This document shows, piece by piece, positions 370 through 60,712 of a stretch of DNA of 64,000 bases (position 1 is the first letter of the stretch; each line of letters starts with the position of its first letter). The position numbers were made by a program, and so were the translations under genes. The notes under the pieces were generated by a model. That model was not told the DNA's origin, made no database searches, and saw nothing but the letters and a program-made list of their open reading frames with translations. This stretch comes from a virus. Lineage: Duplodnaviria; Heunggongvirae; Uroviricota; Caudoviricetes. The stretch is taken from the IMG/VR virus record IMGVR_UViG_2721755712_000001, one strand, 5' to 3'.

Positions 370-673
370 TGTTCTCTGTAAAGGTGTCTGGCATCGTCTG
401 GTTCGTTAACGTTTACTAAACCAATGGTGACAAAAATTAGTTATCTTTGAAAAATAAAGGTTGCATGAAAAGAAGGGGTATGCGTTAATAGCATCGTTGG
501 TTTGCAAGACAGACCTTATGTAAGCAGTTTTAGTAAAGCAGTCTCAGTTCAGTGTTATCTTCTGATTTCCCTTCTTCGTGAGTCTCCTCCTTAAGTGCCT
601 AAGTAAGTCCCAATCTATACAGATCAAATTCTCGCCGCACTATGTGGCTCACAAAATTAAGAAGGTAATATCT

Positions 674-889
674 ATGTCTAATAAAATGACTGGTTTAGTA
701 AAATGGTTTAACTCTGATAAAGGCTTTGGCTTTATTTCTCCTGCTGATGGCAGTAAAGATGTTTTTGTACATTTTTCGGCAATTCAGAGTAATAATTTCC
801 GCACTTTGGAAGAAGGCCAGCAGGTCGAATTCTCTATCGAGAATGGTGCTAAAGGCCCAGCAGCAGCAAATGTCGTTGCTCTAAGCTGA
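674..889 (+). CDS. cold-shock protein, CspA family
   Basis: ORF 578..889 contains [21 protein letters not shown]...VFVHFSAI, the RNP1/RNP2 motifs of CspA-family proteins; start placed at the internal Met (residue 33), leaving a long 5' leader. Confidence 0.85.
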
Positions 890-1166
890 TTCAACGCTGA
901 TGATCCTCATTTCTACAATAACGAAGACGGTGTAAGCCTGAGTGGATAGATTTGTAGGATTGTACAAGTTGAATAAATTAGCATGGTAAGGCCATGCTAA
1001 TTAAATCGACACAACGGCCAGTTTATTCCATAAAAGTGAATTGCCCATTGTGGCGAAATGCGGGGTTGCCGCATGAATAGTCAAAGGCAGAAGCTAACTG
1101 CCGGCATGGCAAAACAAAGTGCGTAAGAGGAGTGACTTCCTCAACAAGCGCCATAATTCTTTATAA

Positions 1167-8893: not shown

Positions 8894-9280
8894 ATGTCTG
8901 ATAACAAGATTGAATTTATAGAAAGTCGCTACGCTGCTTTTATCGCAGGGTTGATTGAATCCTCACCTATGAGCCAGGCCCAGATAGCCAAAACAATTGG
9001 GTATAAAAACGCCAACAACCTTTCTTTAATTAAAAGCGGCAAAATTCCTTTGCCTATCGATAAGGTTCGTCCGCTGGCGCTGGCACTGGGTATTGAGCCA
9101 AGTCGTCTTATGATGATGGTGCTGGAAGAACGCCAACCCGAACTCGCAGCATTTTTATACAAAGAAGGCACTGCTCCTCTTAACGAGGACGAAAAACAGG
9201 TTCTTGCTGCATATAACGAGCGATTCGGTAAAGAGAAAGGCGCATCACAAAAGGTTGTTGAGGCCATAAAGTCTCTATGA
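8894..9280 (+). CDS. XRE-type helix-turn-helix transcriptional regulator
   Basis: 128 aa; segment SQAQIAKTIGYKNANNLSLIKSGK fits an HTH with flanking hydrophobic core; convergent with the recombinase gene. Confidence 0.55.
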   Translation: MSDNKIEFIESRYAAFIAGLIESSPMSQAQIAKTIGYKNANNLSLIKSGKIPLPIDKVRPLALALGIEPSRLMMMVLEERQPELAAFLYKEGTAPLNEDEKQVLAAYNERFGKEKGASQKVVEAIKSL

Positions 9281-10378
9281 AAAATTTACACGAATAAGCT
9301 CTGTTGATAGACGATCTCCCTTAAATTTGTGGTCAATTTCGTCTAAATCCGGTTGCTCTACGATTGATGCGATGTACGTCGAGAAACTTTCTAAGGCGTC
9401 TCGCATCTCGTCCATATAATCGTGCCGGTCGTAGACCCGATCTATCCCCTCAAGACTGTGGTTCATGATTTTACGTGATACCTCCTGGCTTATGCCTAAT
9501 GCTGGGAAGTAACTACGCGCAGTACGGCGCAAATCTCGGGGTGTAAATGGCTCAAGCTCCATCAGTTCTGGTCGTTCCAGAATACGACGTAATGCCTGGG
9601 CTATTGCCACTTTAGACATAGGAAGGTCTTTCCCGATTTTTTTATTCGAAGGCACGAGCCACTGGCTGTCTTTACCATATTCGAACAACTCTTCAATACA
9701 AGTGCGCATTAATGAGCTTAAAGGCAGAGAATGCTCACGGGCAGATTTGTTCCTCTTGCCTTGATTCCAAACCCCACGCTTAAGATTGAACTCACTTTTT
9801 TTAGCCCGCAGTACTTCGTCAGGTCGTCTTGCGGATACAAGACATAGCCTGGCCGCCCATTTTGTACCAGCACACACATTGAAGTAGTCCCATATATTCC
9901 AGAACACCCATACCTCTGCGTCGGTCAGCTTCCGCTCGCGAGGTGTGGGCTTTGCGCCACCGGCAACTTTGTTAAGTGACATATCGTTTAACGGTGACAC
10001 GTCTATCATCCCCTGGAAGGCGCACCAGCTAAGGAACTGCTTCATCAGAGAGAAAACGCGGCGGCCCATAACAATTTTGCCATCCAGTATTAGTGGGTTG
10101 ACCAGTTGGTTCACCATGAACCTATTAATGTCACTTACTTTTACATCGGCAATGTGCGGCAAAACATGTATCAAAATACAATGAACAGCGATCTCTGGCC
10201 GACGTCTGGTTATCAGCAGAGATAAGCGAGTGAATAACATGAATGCGTCCGAGAATCTCATGTCATTGCTGACCTGGGAGATCATAACGGCCTGCATTTG
10301 AGATGCTCTTTCGAGATACTCTATCGCCTCTTTTGAGGTGTTCTCCGCAGCGCGTGCTCTGTCAAAGCTATTTTTCAT
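9275..10378 (-). CDS. tyrosine recombinase (integrase/resolvase family)
   Basis: 367 aa; C-terminal region with conserved Arg (LRRTARSYF), His (IMNHSL) and a Tyr near RVYDRHDY, in the R-H-R-Y arrangement of tyrosine recombinases. Confidence 0.65.
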   Translation of the reverse strand: MKNSFDRARAAENTSKEAIEYLERASQMQAVMISQVSNDMRFSDAFMLFTRLSLLITRRRPEIAVHCILIHVLPHIADVKVSDINRFMVNQLVNPLILDGKIVMGRRVFSLMKQFLSWCAFQGMIDVSPLNDMSLNKVAGGAKPTPRERKLTDAEVWVFWNIWDYFNVCAGTKWAARLCLVSARRPDEVLRAKKSEFNLKRGVWNQGKRNKSAREHSLPLSSLMRTCIEELFEYGKDSQWLVPSNKKIGKDLPMSKVAIAQALRRILERPELMELEPFTPRDLRRTARSYFPALGISQEVSRKIMNHSLEGIDRVYDRHDYMDEMRDALESFSTYIASIVEQPDLDEIDHKFKGDRLSTELIRVNFS

Positions 10379-12094: not shown

Positions 12095-13003
12095 ATGATT
12101 GGTAAGTTGTCTGATTCTTTGATTGAAAATAAATACAACGAATTTAGAGAAGAAATATCTTTACTTTTTGACTATTTAAATCAGATAAATGATACAACAA
12201 AGAAAAATATAAAACGTCTTCTTAAAGAAGTGGAGTATGCACAGAATCCAGATACTATTATTAATATTAATGAAACTATTAAGATTAAGTGTGGCACAAC
12301 GTTAGCTCGCCATTTATGTTCAAACCCATATACAGGTTCAACATTAGAGATAGGTAACAGCGCCATTGATTTAGAAGAAAAGATAAGATTGTGTAATACT
12401 TTGAAAAATAAACAATATCAGTGGGTTATTACTGAAGCCTATGAGTTACTGGAAGACTATATTGAGGCAATATATGTCTATACTGTATGTGTTCGAAATG
12501 ATTTATGGTCCTCAAGTGATTTTGGTAAGGTTGAAGATGATGAAATTGGGAAAAGGGAAGTTTATTACAGATTATTAAAAGCAAAAAGTAACCCATCGAA
12601 AAAAATAACTAAAATTTTCAGAAATAAAATACCTGGCTTCAAAGAGATAGAAACAAACAACAAGATTGGCAAAAACTATCGCTTTAACATCAAGCTAATT
12701 GAACTACTAAGACATACAATAGTACACAATAGTGGACGATTCAATGATACAGAAAAATTTATAAATAAGGTTTTAGATGAATCTGAAATAAACGGTAAGA
12801 AAAGAGTTATTGGAGAAAGAGCTGTTAGAAGTTACATTACTAAAGTGCAAGAAGATGATATTGTGATGCTCTTAGAAAGACCATCTGAAATTTTAGGTTC
12901 TTTTGGTGGGTATTTTAACAGAGCAAAATTTTTACTAAGTGATATTTTAGAATACTCACTAATCATTAAAGAAGAACTAAAATCATATCTAGGCAATCAT
13001 TAA
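12095..13003 (+). CDS. AT-rich hypothetical protein with HEPN-like R-x4-H motif (possible abortive-infection-type protein)
   Basis: 302 aa; strongly AT-rich and Lys/Asn/Ile-rich relative to neighbours; motif LLRHTIVHNSG (R-x4-H); own terminator. Confidence 0.3.
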   Translation: MIGKLSDSLIENKYNEFREEISLLFDYLNQINDTTKKNIKRLLKEVEYAQNPDTIININETIKIKCGTTLARHLCSNPYTGSTLEIGNSAIDLEEKIRLCNTLKNKQYQWVITEAYELLEDYIEAIYVYTVCVRNDLWSSSDFGKVEDDEIGKREVYYRLLKAKSNPSKKITKIFRNKIPGFKEIETNNKIGKNYRFNIKLIELLRHTIVHNSGRFNDTEKFINKVLDESEINGKKRVIGERAVRSYITKVQEDDIVMLLERPSEILGSFGGYFNRAKFLLSDILEYSLIIKEELKSYLGNH

Positions 13004-13004
13004 C

Positions 13005-13034
13005 AAAAAAGGGGCCGAAGCCCCTTTGGATTTT
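13005..13034 (+). terminator. Rho-independent terminator
   Basis: A-tract, GGGGC-CGAA-GCCCC hairpin, then TTTGGATTTT, immediately after the 12095..13003 stop. Confidence 0.75.
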
Positions 13035-13183
13035 GCGCTTAAAAAAGTGTTGCTAGGATGTTAGCAAGCTATATGGTTAAGAACGTCTGCCGTAATTGTC
13101 TATCACAGCGTTGAGCGGTCTGGTTTATGTTAGCGGAGTCTTAATCGAGTTGATTAAAAGGCCAAACCGCTCAACGCTGTGTC

Positions 13184-13270
13184 TGGCGGAGAGTAATGGA
13201 ATCGAACCATCATCGTTTGCACAATGGGACGGTTTTCAAGACCGCTTGAGCACCATGCTCCCTACTCTCC
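13184..13270 (-). tRNA. tRNA-Ser (anticodon UGA), long variable arm
   Basis: reverse complement folds with acceptor GGAGAGT/ACTCTCC, anticodon loop CUUGAAA, T-loop GGTTCGATTCC, encoded GCCA 3' end. Confidence 0.8.
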
Positions 13271-13590
13271 AGCTATTGTGATGGTCGGTACTGAACTCCG
13301 ACACAGGGTTGTAGCAAGCCCCGCAAAGCGCGCACTACTGTAGTTGCGGCACATCAGCCTGTGCATTCATCACAACGGTAAGATCACTACCTTTCGACCA
13401 GTCATTGTGCACATGAACGACGATTAACCGTAATGATATTATCGTTGTGTTGTGAAGCCAGATGCTTATCTTCTGGTTGCTTCAAAGAGCTGCACTTCCT
13501 CACAACGGTAAGAGCACTGGTCTGACTCTATCGATTTACGGCCTTGTGGGTCAGTATCGCCGATTCGCCCAATGCTCTTACCTGTTGTGT

Positions 13591-13666
13591 TGGTGCCGGT
13601 TAACGGACTTGAACCGCTGGCCATTCGCTTACAAAGCGACTGCTCTACCAACTGAGCTAAACCGGC
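13591..13666 (-). tRNA. tRNA-Thr (anticodon UGU)
   Basis: acceptor GCCGGTT/AACCGGC, D-arm GCTCAGTTGGTAGAGC, anticodon loop UUUGUAA, T-loop GGTTCAAGTCC, encoded CCA. Confidence 0.75.
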
Positions 13667-13670
13667 AATT

Positions 13671-13757
13671 TGGTGGGGAGTGATGGAGTCGAACCACCCG
13701 AGTCGCCATGACAGTAGATTTACAGTCTACACCGCTACCTCTACGGACTAACTCCCC
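13671..13757 (-). tRNA. tRNA-Tyr (anticodon GUA), long variable arm
   Basis: acceptor GGGGAGT/ACTCCCC, anticodon stem GTAGA/TCTAC with loop CUGUAAA, T-loop GGTTCGACTCC, encoded CCA. Confidence 0.8.
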
Positions 13758-13762
13758 TAAAT

Positions 13763-13837
13763 TGGCGATGGTGGGTGGATTCGAACCACCGACCAGTTGG
13801 TTAACAGCCAACTGCTCTACCGCTGAGCTACACCATC
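13763..13837 (-). tRNA. tRNA-Asn (anticodon GUU)
   Basis: acceptor GATGGTG/CACCATC, D-arm GCTCAGCGGTAGAGC, anticodon stem GTTGG/CCAAC with loop CUGUUAA, T-loop GGTTCGAATCC, encoded CCA. Confidence 0.8.
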
Positions 13838-14615
13838 AATTCAGCACTGCCAGTATTTATTACTCAACAGTGCCAATCGCGACGGTTTAGTTTCTGCCAG
13901 GAAACGCACCGCTACTTGCACTTTTCGTTAGTGCCAGACGCTTTCGACTTCGCTCAATAGTAGAAGGCAAAATCTTTAAGTAGATGATGTTTCTGAGGAC
14001 AGCACCTACTTTGTAATTTATACAATGTGATGTATGGAATCATTTGTTGTGAAAACAGGCACCAATGGCAACAGTGGTTAAACCTACACAACAATCCCGT
14101 CTTCACAACGTTGAGGCCACTACTCCGATTGAATGTTTGCCCAACATGTTACATATCAACGCTCGCCGGTATCTCTGTGAATAGAACCTTAGAATTGATA
14201 AAAATGTAATGGCCTCAACGTTGTGTGCTGGCTAACCATACCAGCCGGGCTACGTCGCCGCTTTTTAACCCAGTATAAACGACATAATTGAACAAAATGA
14301 CGTAACAGGATGGGCGGTCAGTGGCTAAGAATCCGGGAGTCATATGGAGTTGAAAATATACCAACCGCCCATTCTGTTACTTCATCGGAGGGAACATGAA
14401 TGTTCCCTCCTGCGTTCTGCAATCACACTCGCTCAGTGTGTCCCATTTCGGTAACGAGGCTGGAAACTGACCTCGCTGGTGTTGGGCTTATTAGGCTACT
14501 GCCAGATAGACTTCTTCGTTTGCACTTGTATTTAAGTTCAAACAGTCGCGTCTCAACGAAAACAAAGTCATCTTATACATAAAAGATAAGTAAGTAAATA
14601 CTTATCATGATGTTT

Positions 14616-14906
14616 TTATTCGGTTGTGACTTTTTTGATCAAGGCCACTCTACGACTAGGTGTTCTTGTGATGGTGGCAGTGAATCGTTTCGCCTGGATA
14701 GTAATGGTTTCGTTCTCCTTAAGTTGCCCGTAGCGAGTTTCCACCAGGGTGCCAAGACGCCACAGACCATCATCGATACGTTTATGACTAGCAAATTTTA
14801 TCAGCAACAGTTTTACGACTAACTGACCTACGTAAAAGGCGAATGCGACTCCGGCCGCTAAGAAATAGGTGGCCAACCACCAGTCCCAAGAAGTTAAATT
14901 GCTCAT
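14616..14906 (-). CDS. small membrane protein
   Basis: 96 aa; N-terminal hydrophobic segment WWLATYFLAAGVAFAFYVGQLVV consistent with one or two TM helices. Confidence 0.4.
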   Translation of the reverse strand: MSNLTSWDWWLATYFLAAGVAFAFYVGQLVVKLLLIKFASHKRIDDGLWRLGTLVETRYGQLKENETITIQAKRFTATITRTPSRRVALIKKVTTE

Positions 14907-15051
14907 TTTCTAACCTTTGTTTCATGAACTACCCGATACACACGCTTTCCGATGCACAGTGTTTTGGTTTTAAGTTCCTGCTTAATTAAATCACGACAGA
15001 TGCCGAAGCCAATAAGGAAGCCACCCATAAAAGCTAATGAGATGTATGGAA

Positions 15052-15267
15052 TCATTTTAACGCTCCTGATTCTACTAACCGCTGTAGCAATACTTTCCCT
15101 TTATCAGTTAACTGGTAGTTGGCCGAACACCACGTTTCAGAAACGTTTGCAACCAACCCTAACCGCTCTAACTTAGCCCGCGTTTTAGGCTTCCAGTACT
15201 CAGGGAACTCCGGCCACTTACTGATTTCATGAAGCGTTTCCTTCTCCCGCTTACTTAATACGATCAT
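15052..15267 (-). CDS. hypothetical small protein
   Basis: 71-aa ORF upstream of the ligase gene in the same orientation. Confidence 0.35.
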   Translation of the reverse strand: MIVLSKREKETLHEISKWPEFPEYWKPKTRAKLERLGLVANVSETWCSANYQLTDKGKVLLQRLVESGALK

Positions 15268-15426: not shown

Positions 15427-16749
15427 TCATTCTTTATCTCCGATTCGATCTTCTGTATCGCGTAAGCAACGCGGCCATTTCAGTCGTGGGTGGCGTAAGC
15501 TGCCGTCCGGTGTTTTCTCGTGACAATGAACCTCGACAATACGACCACGGTACTTCTCTTTGTTGTTCCAGATCTCGTCCAGATATTTATGCTTAATGCC
15601 GCTCGCACGAACGATGACGCCGTTTTCAAGACGAATAACAATTTTTCCAAGTGTGTTGGCAAAACCAGAGTCCGGGTCGCCCGGCTCAAAGTCGATAATT
15701 TCACCATCTTCTGAATCTTCGTCTTTTAACTTCCACCAGCTGCGGGTACGTTTAAACTCGTAAACAGAGTTCGGATCTTTGCCCATCTCCCCTTCTTCGT
15801 TATCGTCCAGGCGTTTCATGAAGCGTTCGATGAAGTCTTCGTGGCTATGGATGATGTAGAACGGATGTAGGTGAATGTCTTGCGCGTAGTCTTCACTGCG
15901 ATCGTTTTTGAACAACGCCACGAGAATAGCCAGGCGCTCTTTCAGCTTCATACCTGTCTTTGCATACTCTTTGGATTTAGCCTGTGCCCGCCATTCCGGT
16001 AGGAAGAAGTCGAAAACATGATAAATAGCGCCAATTGCCTGCACGTTCTTTTTGCGCAATGCAGATACGGACTGGTTAAATGAACCGGCTGTTCCTTCAC
16101 CATCGAAGAAGATGTGTTTGTGGCCTGAAAGTTTGCCTAATTCGAGCATGGCTGGCTTTAGGTGATCGAGAGACGTGATTGGATTACCAGTACGAGAAAG
16201 GAAGTTCACCTCTTCCTCGTCAACAATAACCTCACAAATTACTCGCAAACCATCGAGCTTAAGACTGCCAATCATCGGCCATTTTGCTTTAGGATTTGGC
16301 TTGAAGGGGTATTTGTCGCCTTTTTCTTTATACGGTGACGCCAGCTGCACCTCGAATTTCGGAATGGGATTTTCAAAAACCTTGTTGCATAGGCTAATCC
16401 CAACACCTGCTTTCGGGTCTTTTAAGAGGAAACGACGGAACACGTCCTGCCCATCGGCGCACATTGACGCCACGATAGACTCAACAGCAGCTATTGCTGC
16501 GTTCCCCGTTAGCTCGCGAGAGGCCAGCTTATTCAGTACATCAATGGCTTTTTCGTCACTTGGGATGGACTCACTAAGCGGCTCTGCCACTTTGTATTTC
16601 TTTACCCCAAAACGGATGAAAGGGTTGAGCATCAATGAAACCATGCTTTGCTCGAAGTCATCCATGTTGGCCAATGCCTCTTTTTTTGCATTGGTTCCCA
16701 TAGCTTTCATTTCGTCCAGCTTATGCTTAAGTGCGATCAACTTTTTCAT
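15427..16749 (-). CDS. ATP-dependent DNA ligase
   Basis: 440 aa; adenylation motif I SLKLDGLRVICE (KxDG) followed by a nucleotidyltransferase-like core. Confidence 0.8.
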   Translation of the reverse strand: MKKLIALKHKLDEMKAMGTNAKKEALANMDDFEQSMVSLMLNPFIRFGVKKYKVAEPLSESIPSDEKAIDVLNKLASRELTGNAAIAAVESIVASMCADGQDVFRRFLLKDPKAGVGISLCNKVFENPIPKFEVQLASPYKEKGDKYPFKPNPKAKWPMIGSLKLDGLRVICEVIVDEEEVNFLSRTGNPITSLDHLKPAMLELGKLSGHKHIFFDGEGTAGSFNQSVSALRKKNVQAIGAIYHVFDFFLPEWRAQAKSKEYAKTGMKLKERLAILVALFKNDRSEDYAQDIHLHPFYIIHSHEDFIERFMKRLDDNEEGEMGKDPNSVYEFKRTRSWWKLKDEDSEDGEIIDFEPGDPDSGFANTLGKIVIRLENGVIVRASGIKHKYLDEIWNNKEKYRGRIVEVHCHEKTPDGSLRHPRLKWPRCLRDTEDRIGDKE

Positions 16750-60145: not shown

Positions 60146-60712
60146 ATGAGTTGGTTAAAAGAATTATCATTTGTTGACACCACTGGCGCTAAGAAAAATC
60201 ATTCTTTCTGGAAAGTCAGCGATCCTTCTGATTTTCTTGTTGGTGCTAATGCTGCTTTTGAATTGCTTAACTTTTATCAACGTTATCCAGAAATGAAACA
60301 CAGTCCACTCCTGTACAGAATAACAAACGATATGAATAGGTCTGGTTTATTATCAAGTGAGTCAGCGAAAGGCTTTTTTAGCAAAATTACGCCTCACATA
60401 TCATTCGATGCAACAAACGAAATTGATTATCTATCCACGAAATCTCAAGAACAATTATCTGTACCACCTGAGAAAAAAGAAAGACGAATTGCCAGCATTG
60501 AAAATATATCGAAAGAGCTTCGCACAACAACGTTGAGGCTGCTGAACTTTCTTACGCTGCTTAATTGGATAGATGATCAAACATTGATTCCATCAACAGA
60601 TGCGTTGGATAACAGAGTCCTTAGGCTGAACAAAAAATCGCAATTTGGTTTTGTGTTCACCAAAAAAGGTGAAGATTTAATCAAAAGAAAATATAGATTA
60701 TTGAATGATTAA
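60146..60712 (+). CDS. AT-rich hypothetical protein
   Basis: start placed at MSWLKEL after AAAGGAG; the track ORF begins at 60113; low-GC cargo-like composition. Confidence 0.45.
   Translation: MSWLKELSFVDTTGAKKNHSFWKVSDPSDFLVGANAAFELLNFYQRYPEMKHSPLLYRITNDMNRSGLLSSESAKGFFSKITPHISFDATNEIDYLSTKSQEQLSVPPEKKERRIASIENISKELRTTTLRLLNFLTLLNWIDDQTLIPSTDALDNRVLRLNKKSQFGFVFTKKGEDLIKRKYRLLND

Follow-up and report, generated by a model that had tools for sequence, protein, structure and literature searches.

A stretch of 64,000 nucleotides from a virus of the Caudoviricetes (Duplodnaviria; Heunggongvirae; Uroviricota; IMG/VR record IMGVR_UViG_2721755712_000001), hereafter the window, contains on its minus strand a cluster of tRNA genes interspersed with long imperfect hairpins that bear CACAACG...CGUUGUG ends. 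These repeats are members of a widespread, uncatalogued family of phage RNA hairpins that punctuate non-coding transcripts carrying several RNAs. Selection maintains their 20-bp stem as RNA, and the hairpins share a transcript with tRNAs and further small RNAs, at whose boundaries they stand. Based on the comparison of the sequences, it is proposed, with a probability of roughly one half, that they serve as double-stranded punctuation or processing modules of a minus-strand non-coding transcript of ~1.55 kb. The most novel lead to emerge is an adjacent module that resembles transfer-messenger RNA (tmRNA).

The conclusion that the hairpins are a selected RNA structure is well supported. The orientation of each hairpin was set solely by the strand of the neighbouring tRNA or by an asymmetric flank motif, and the outer stems of 51 distinct hairpins, read on the tRNA strand, contained 80 G·U pairs and 2 A·C mismatches. 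On the opposite strand each of these 80 pairs would read as an A·C mismatch, evidencing selection on the fold of the tRNA-sense transcript and not on a DNA cruciform. When the arms of 30 distinct copies were aligned as a 20-bp helix, 95.8% of the cells were paired, compared with 82.3% in shuffled and 35-55% in slid alignments, both sides had changed in 12 of the 20 stem pairs and none of 500 shuffles reached the observed values; the shuffle test overstates the significance because the copies are paralogues or homologues of one another, a kinship weakness from which the slid controls and the strand asymmetry are free.

This asymmetry bears on the suggestion, contained in an earlier reading of the region from the letters alone (the original prediction), that a replication origin or a recombination site could be located here. 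In its broader form this explanation would make the repeats elements of the DNA, be it a mobile palindrome resembling a miniature inverted-repeat transposable element (MITE) or an attC site, a recombination site or a single-strand origin, and it is considered highly improbable. It can draw on the terminal inverted repeats (79-128 bp in total), on presence/absence polymorphisms with junctions in the CACAA motif and on a tyrosine recombinase gene at 9275-10378. Conversely, the 80 vs 2 imbalance of G·U over A·C shows selection on the RNA of one strand, the flanks have no target-site duplications, the copies are clustered in one non-coding unit instead of being dispersed, and the family is found in records of T1-like, N4-like and Ackermannviridae phages with no integrase annotated in the stretches examined. 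As the unrelated virulent phages that carry the family have no replication or integration machinery in common, neither an origin nor a recombination site could be upheld as the selected function, and any origin or single-strand DNA element is likewise at odds with the strand asymmetry and with the occurrence in unrelated phages. Among the specific candidates, a MITE was rejected since no flank duplication was seen and all copies in the 64-kb window are confined to a stretch of 1.2 kb. Integron attC sites have the core sites RYYYAAC...GTTRRRY and stand beside ORF (open reading frame) cassettes and an IntI integrase; the ends here are CACAACG...CGTTGTG, of which GTTGTG misfits GTTRRRY, and the neighbours are tRNAs and not ORF cassettes, so that this candidate was discarded as well.

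The original prediction had described four long inverted repeats with related ends, all of which are present (H1 to H4 in Table 1, with slightly corrected coordinates), and a perfect 11-bp palindrome, which is exact. It had also stated that no convincing protein is encoded in the region, in agreement with ORFs of at most 73 aa that overlap the tRNAs on the opposite strand. The RNA fold of H1 reaches -41.2 kcal/mol (z = -9.0), the stems range from -39 to -48 kcal/mol, and a duplicated CACAA extends the end of H2 to 13454. A further long hairpin, H5, with arms of 22 nt at 14297-14318 and 14364-14385 that are 91% complementary, had been overlooked. The stem of the palindrome is kept despite altered sequence, as GGAUAGGGCAUG..CAUGCCCUAUUC and GGAGAGAGCAUG..CAUGCUCUUUCC in the phage SSU5 and in a second relative (L039). 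The end motif CACARCGKTRAG has 6 exact matches in the window, all within 13104-14225, and 1 additional match with one mismatch at 60526, compared with 1.6 matches in shuffled sequences, none of 100 shuffles reaching 7; a wider scan across the whole window found no family copies beyond 13104-14225.

Table 1. Features of the non-coding region of the window, in order of position.
Feature	Position	Strand	Remarks
Intrinsic terminator, GGGGCUUCGGCCCC then U6	13008..13027	-	closes the putative unit, follows H1
H1, family hairpin, 20-bp stem, 38-nt interior	13104..13181	-	20-nt arms 95% complementary
tRNA-Ser (TGA)	13184..13270	-	CCA encoded
Spacer RNA	13271..13370	-	between H2 and tRNA-Ser
H2, family hairpin	13371..13449	-	weakest copy, z = -2.2, A·C mismatch
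Small spacer hairpin GAAGCAACCAGA..UCUGGCUUC	13454..13483	-	between H3 and H2; also in P1
H3, family hairpin with bulged A and U·G pair	13501..13589	-	z = -6.1
tRNA-Thr (TGT)	13591..13666	-	CCA encoded
tRNA-Tyr (GTA)	13671..13757	-	tRNA gene call
tRNA-Asn (GTT)	13763..13837	-	tRNA gene call
H4, family hairpin, 20-bp stem, 82-nt interior	14104..14225	-	20-nt arms 95% complementary, z = -5.6
Candidate third pseudoknot (AUGUCGUU/GGCGACGU with GGGUU/AGCCC) and small hairpin GCUGGU-N7-GCCAGC	14227..14285	-	abutting H4
H5, long hairpin, stem of 22 bp or more	14292..14390	-	ends unlike the family; kept in SSU5-like relatives
Palindrome GGAGGGAACAT-GA-ATGTTCCCTCC, perfect 11 bp	14388..14411	-	short hairpin inside the tmRNA-like module
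Two consecutive H-type pseudoknots	14409..14479	-	right after the tag stops; covariation
Tag frame GCA AAC GAA GAA GUC UAU CUG GCA GUA GCC UAA UAA	14488..14523	-	10 codons, ANEEVYLAVA and two stops
5' element of the tmRNA-like module (UUGUUUUCGUUGAGACGCGACUGUUUGAAC...A-rich)	14524..14565	-	motif kept in 24 modules
Weak sigma-70-like promoter, TTTACT-17 nt-TAAGAT	14570..14598	-	read by eye; possible start of the unit

In the covariance search of Rfam proposed with the original prediction, only cspA and three tRNAs of the window passed the threshold, and the hairpins matched no family. Specifically, none of the hairpins had a match in Rfam 15 at the gathering threshold, and with E values up to 10 only chance matches to miRNA or sX4 models were obtained. 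The comparison with relatives, suggested in order to weigh the conservation of stems against that of sequence, showed that the stems are kept, compensatory changes are present and the interiors are swapped. Between modules that are otherwise nearly identical by eye, e.g., those of HK620 and swi2, the interiors are wholly exchanged while the stems are retained. The family consensus is CACAACGKURAG-N-CAYUGG ... CCARUG-N-CUYAMCGUUGUG, and individual copies follow in the transcript the pattern CACAAC(A)GKURAG-NNC-AYUGG, an interior of 4 to ~90 nt, and CCARUG-GNN-CUYAMCGUUGUG. Downstream of many copies there is a GRUGAAUGC motif with a small hairpin (loop GRCUGA), whose stem covaries (GCGCA/UGCGC, GCACA/UGUGC, UCGCA/UGCGA).

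Members of the family occur in phages of very different type. A scan of IMG/VR with the exact pattern yielded 44 contigs, some of them lambdoid and without tRNA; in one lambdoid contig (L026) three copies come after cI and its operators, where the leftward early operon begins. A sensitive blastn search with one 3' arm and its flank as query returned 144 phage records, among them HK620, Stx2 phages, HK629, T1-like and N4-like phages, Ackermannviridae (Magnus, UPM 2146) and phages of Erwinia, Pantoea and Cronobacter. Further carriers are the SSU5-like phage-plasmids, including the window, and P1/P7/D6. In P1, at least four copies stand in the ban operon around trnT and trnA, partly beneath the opposite-strand ORF calls upl and plp (L001 1376-1945), which may be spurious. 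The copy of HK620 is situated between pR'/qut and the holin gene, that of the T1-like phage swi2 adjoins tRNA-Met, and those of Magnus and the N4-like phage lie within long stretches that hold few or tiny annotated ORFs; in all cases the niche is an untranslated, strongly transcribed leader or tRNA region. A scan of genome contigs with a 15-nt flank pattern was too unspecific and gave mainly chance matches. In the Qin prophage of Escherichia coli K-12 the flank motif GGUGAAUGCGGCUGAGCGCACGCGG was observed ~25 nt downstream of dicF (L299 ~19460), and a related shorter hairpin, CACAAUGG...CCAUUGUG followed by GUGAAGUGCA, at L299 11167-11224, between cspB and essQ on the strand of the late operon.

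A sequence-conserved hairpin family without an Rfam entry is common to model phages (P1, HK620, Stx) and to many virulent phages. Its recognition would allow putatively spurious "hypothetical protein" calls to be corrected (upl and plp in P1, small ORFs in Magnus), and would explain how phage clusters of tRNAs and small RNAs (sRNAs) are cut into working RNAs as well as account for the cassette-like mosaicism of these clusters.

In the window, the hairpins would belong to an untranslated minus-strand unit of ~1.55 kb ending at the terminator at 13027-13008, and transcribed either from a weak site near 14598 that resembles a promoter or through read-through of the upstream ligase operon. The promoter-like site has an 8/12 match, under the scan threshold, and is kept in SSU5 and L039. 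On the minus strand the order is tmRNA-like RNA, H5, H4, tRNA-Asn, tRNA-Tyr, tRNA-Thr, H3, H2, spacer RNA, tRNA-Ser and H1. The spacer RNA contains the conserved 3' flank GAUGAAUGC, the small hairpin GCACA-GGCUGA-UGUGC, a hairpin GUCGG..CCGAC and CAUCACAAUAGC, the leader of tRNA-Ser.

The position of the hairpins relative to the tRNAs is precise, many copies across the phages beginning 0-2 nt past the CCA of a tRNA. H1 starts 2 nt past the encoded CCA of tRNA-Ser and H3 1 nt past that of tRNA-Thr, and in the Klebsiella relatives the CA of the tRNA-Asn CCA itself makes the first two pairs of the stem. Over 178 related loci, a family hairpin was found within -3 to +6 nt of 71 of 183 tRNAs, in a sample that is biased since many loci were collected via the motif. 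Where close relatives differ by indels, the junctions fall within the CACAA motif: the segment missing from CMS-2020a is exactly the H3 cassette, which pEcFELIX526 and Cyrano lack as well, and Cyrano reads tRNA-Thr-CCA-ACACAAU-tRNA-Ser. A CAYCACAA motif also stands just before the 5' end of tRNA-Ser. The shared stems of ~20 bp together with CACAA would incidentally provide short homologies, and recombination there would swap RNA cassettes between phages. At the position of tRNA-Thr, the E. coli plasmid pSTEC388_1 (NZ_CP041426.1, L054 1070-1202) has a 133-nt "tRNA-OTHER" called by PGAP, with acceptor, D and T arms intact and the anticodon arm replaced by a structured insert of ~75 nt.

The original prediction had considered structured non-coding RNAs or processing signals for the tRNA transcript, and this option gains support from the strand-specific G·U pairs, the compensatory changes, the conservation in many phages and the placement after the CCA of tRNAs. 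Processing of the RNase III type is the best-fitting mechanism, and each hairpin would most probably be an RNase III site. A cut near base pair 14/15 would set the variable interior free as a small hairpin RNA and divide the transcript between adjacent RNAs (tRNAs, the tmRNA-like RNA and sRNAs resembling STnc100/PasD), after which the 3' trailer of the tRNA would be trimmed by exonucleases back to the encoded CCA. According to PMC6212723, RNase III substrates measure ~22 bp and E. coli targets follow in vivo a rule with G-C/C-G in the two pairs that separate the cuts (WSSW) and A-U/U-A at D/D' in 95-97% of the targets. The 20-bp stem, paired as described above over 30 copies, approaches this length and corresponds to about two helical turns. 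With the register taken from the text of that source, the single one that agrees with the rule is centred on base pair 14/15, where the centre is S-S in 20/30 copies and D/D' (base pairs 11 and 18) is A-U/U-A in 28/30; this is a post hoc fit, in which both conditions hold in 19/30 copies and in 13/30 for the next best register. H1, H3 and H4 fit this register and H2 does not. A boundary role also fits the observation that in P1 a match to the sRNA STnc100 starts with the conserved flank GGUGAAUGC and the small hairpin that adjoin the stem on its 3' side. Both STnc100 and PasD are sRNAs known from prophages, and for PasA, a relative, the 5' end is reported to result from cleavage of a longer transcript (bioRxiv 10.64898/2026.05.13.724894).

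Several points weigh against processing by RNase III. The fit to the rule (PMC6212723) is both post hoc and incomplete, covering 19/30 copies with H2 excluded. A cut at base pair 14/15 leaves a stable 14-bp duplex with the 3' trailer of the tRNA, from which the route to a mature CCA is not obviously efficient. In addition, the rules for RNase III leave the strong conservation of the terminal CACAACG/CGUUGUG unexplained, and these ends could mark the action of a different factor (e.g., RNase P, RNase E or a protein of the phage). Finally, interiors of the H4 class retain CACAGAG, a UGGG loop and AAUCGG across relatives, meaning that the interior may be the functional part. Possible alternatives to RNase III are cleavage of the stem base by RNase P or RNase E, a barrier to exonucleases or Rho, and a function in the interiors.

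The last of these can be formulated as a carrier function, in which the conserved stem serves as a scaffold for stabilisation or release, the variable interior acts as effector (an sRNA, a decoy or a piece resembling tRNA) and each hairpin is a small-RNA gene; it overlaps the processing proposal, from which it differs in where function resides, and is held only tentatively. The wholesale exchange of interiors between the near-identical modules of HK620 and swi2, the T-arm-like or class-II-tRNA-like parts in the interiors of swi2, Magnus and a third locus (L184), and the short motifs retained in H4-class interiors among SSU5-like relatives are in line with it. On the other hand, RNAalifold recovered on the H4 class the outer stem only, with no conserved interior structure, interiors range from a tetraloop (in the palindrome) to 82 nt with no motif common across classes, and none matches any Rfam family. 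The presence of T-arm-like pieces in homologous hairpins of some relatives also touches the idea in the original prediction that the repeats are remnants of tRNA pseudogenes, which was not supported for the four copies of the window, as these have neither a T-arm nor a D-arm.

The barrier function would make the hairpins uncleaved insulators that block 3' exonucleases and the loading of Rho on a long untranslated transcript, comparable to REP/BIME or ERIC in operons. In its favour, ~1.5 kb are untranslated here and a similar length in P1, where tciABC, trnI and ban follow downstream on the same strand, and the stems are very stable, as given above. This explanation appears unlikely, as it accounts neither for the conserved sequence of the stem nor for the exact abutment on CCA ends, and an uncut hairpin right after the CCA would impede, and not aid, the trimming of tRNA 3' ends.

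Processing at the hairpins, as preferred here, has its nearest known counterparts in the RNase III stems of rRNA operons, of the early region of phage T7 and of the lambda N-leader, which are likewise long intramolecular duplexes of ~20 bp between the RNAs of a polycistronic transcript; the pattern of base pairs is compatible, in the post hoc fit above, with the WSSW centre and the A-U at D/D' of E. coli. The phage family differs from these stems in the conserved stem sequence and CACAACG/CGUUGUG ends, the abutment on CCA, the hypervariable interior and the horizontal exchange among unrelated phages, and cleavage here is only predicted. The Correia elements of Neisseria and the enterobacterial ERIC and REP/BIME repeats give rise to transcripts processed by RNase III or RNase E. 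They resemble the hairpins as imperfect palindromes of ~80-130 nt, transcribed in intergenic regions and able to alter RNA processing or stability, but are dispersed in high copy number over host chromosomes, whereas the phage family forms one non-coding RNA cluster per genome with no target duplications seen. In the tRNA cluster of phage T4, species 1 and 2 (rnaC/rnaD) are stable structured non-tRNA RNAs, co-transcribed and co-processed with tRNAs, with no function assigned; to our knowledge they have not been described as a repeated hairpin family. In the case of STnc100 (Rfam RF02076)/PasD, the 3' flank of the P1 hairpin (GGUGAAUGC and small hairpin, then CACCGGGAGGCACCCGGCACC) matches the STnc100 model with 33.4 bits (E = 7e-6, 301-nt search), which is below the gathering score of 47, and the two share the lambdoid late leader as a niche. 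The long hairpin lies outside the matched model positions 31-147, and no STnc100 match was reported in the window.

Other known RNAs were considered and rejected. The boxA of nut sites is single-stranded, GCUCUUA / UGCUCUUUAACAA. A comparable UGCUCUUA is present in the 3' arm of H3 and in many relatives, but absent from H1 (CCGCUCAACG), H2 and H4 (GGCCUCAACG), and it is base-paired. A likeness of the 3' arm of H2 to the 5' end of human Y1 RNA received no support from Rfam Y_RNA and YrlA and was dropped. The put RNA of HK022 is a two-stem structure of ~70 nt located downstream of an early promoter (PMC9378689); the hairpins here are single long stems, with several copies per transcript, far from promoters.

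The tmRNA-like module, to which the hairpins led, lies just upstream of them, includes the palindrome and H5, and had been overlooked in the original prediction. A GUUUUCG...GCGACU(U/G)U motif in its 5' element is conserved across 24 aligned phage modules. The frame at 14488-14523 has the GCA resume codon, the hydrophobic C-terminus and the stop of a tmRNA tag, and Rfam beta_tmRNA gives a partial match at 14440-14533 (E = 0.014) that involves the coding part only. Over the 24 modules, the four helices of the two pseudoknots have 87% of cells paired vs 35-49% when slid, and in 13/18 pairs both partners vary; in some rows the second knot is poorly aligned in its 3' strand. Pseudoknots around the coding region are a property of tmRNA, and the module has two downstream ones that covary; an upstream PK1 was not established. 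The small hairpin beside the candidate third pseudoknot keeps its 6-bp stem and 7-nt loop in five relatives. The tags elsewhere are ANDDLMMVAA (P1), ANEEMYLAVA (HK620 and swi2), ANDDVVLMAA (Magnus), ANDDVILMAA (N4-like phage) and ANEDTYLAVA (SSU5), compared with ANDENYALAA in E. coli, and the IMG/VR class with the upstream GUUUUCG motif shows 12 tag variants, all of 10 codons, with the pattern AN[DE][DE]xxxx[AV]A. The record of P1 has an annotation, "dicF-like region", just upstream of the module. The T1-like phage swi2 carries a self-contained non-coding operon (L177 1212-1811), framed by a terminator and a 10/12 promoter, the latter in the place equivalent to the 14570-14598 site of the window; between the two come the tmRNA-like module, a long hairpin whose interior resembles a T-arm, a spacer RNA and tRNA-Met.

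Like tmRNA (ssrA), the module has a GCA resume codon in a UAAAU/AAGU-GCAAACGA context, a 10-codon tag AN(D/E)(D/E)....(A/V)A, double stops and covarying pseudoknots directly downstream; it differs in that no tRNA-like domain was found, extended similarity to E. coli ssrA is lacking at the nucleotide level and the Rfam scores are below the gathering thresholds. With default settings ARAGORN found no tRNA-like domain in the module, and at 85% thresholds (-ps85) it called permuted tmRNAs with the right tags in which the pieces of the tRNA domain were arbitrary and non-homologous. A search for an acceptor stem with G3·U70 and a CCA end found none, and the match to Rfam tmRNA_permuted, obtained in the N4-like phage, is full-length but weak (31 bits vs a gathering score of 47). 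As no tRNA-like domain was found, the module is called tmRNA-like and not filed as tmRNA. A recent copy of the host gene was rejected, since blastn of E. coli ssrA against the modules matched just the first 13 nt of the tag.

In a census of 2014, phage ssrA genes were found solely in mycobacteriophages and Bacillus phage G (PMC4131195). The literature on phage tmRNA-like RNAs and on the P1 ban operon and dicF yielded no account of the module, with incomplete coverage, so that an earlier description is possible. As a speculative proposal, for which the odds are rather low, the hairpins would be parts of an unrecognised phage-borne class of tmRNA-like genes, in which the tag RNA together with tRNA-like pieces that the flanking long hairpins present or release, or with phage tRNAs nearby, would rescue or re-tag stalled host ribosomes to the phage's own ends. 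With the same reserve, this class may extend over P1, SSU5-like phage-plasmids and HK620, Stx, T1-like, N4-like and Ackermannviridae phages. A separate explanation takes the hairpins as helices of a phage tmRNA-like ribonucleoprotein that join or present the tRNA-like and tag-coding parts, as helix P2 does in permuted or two-piece tmRNAs. In most modules one family hairpin stands directly before the GUUUUCG element and another directly after the second pseudoknot, some interiors have tmRNA-like T-arms (e.g., GGCGGGUUCAAUUCCCGAC in L184), and the weak tmRNA_permuted match points in the same direction. Considering that the acceptor stem with G3·U70 and CCA end was not found, that H1-H3 of the window are distant from the tag module and beside ordinary tRNAs, and that some loci (e.g., L011 and L012) have family hairpins at tRNAs with no tag module found in the stretch examined, this explanation is regarded as improbable. 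Through the hairpins, a tmRNA-like RNA that codes for a tag and is conserved in enterobacterial phages came to light; should this module prove functional, the control of ribosome rescue by phages would be directly testable in E. coli.

Regarding the genomic context, the closest matches of the region are phage-plasmids like SSU5/pHCM2, with identities of 96.8% for Escherichia phage CMS-2020a and 98.1% for Cyrano; Klebsiella phage-plasmids and SSU5 are also among the best matches, and P1, P7 and D6 match portions of the region. The H2/H3 stretch was found in 696 of 5426 complete E. coli genomes, nearly always on plasmids, and in SSU5-like plasmids of the pTW10722 type the identity over H2/H3 is 100%. 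A DNA ligase gene (15427-16749) and small ORFs are located upstream on the same (minus) strand as the tRNAs and hairpins. A 22-nt direct repeat, 95% identical between 13954-14043 (-) and 14903-15055 (-), duplicates the beginning of the 50-aa ORF MIPYISL... and gives rise to the short ORF MIPYITLYK... between H4 and tRNA-Asn, which is probably the relic of a gene start within the non-coding unit.

On the other side, a 302-aa ORF at 12095-13003 (+), with no Pfam match, is convergent on the terminator at 13008-13027 and lies in an island of 29-33% GC vs ~45-50% GC in the surroundings; as Cyrano has different genes at this site, the ORF looks like a recently acquired accessory gene. At 496-914 (+), the window contains a full-length match to the cspA thermoregulator in the 5' untranslated region (Rfam RF01766, 187.6 bits), which implies a cold-shock protein gene on the phage-plasmid.

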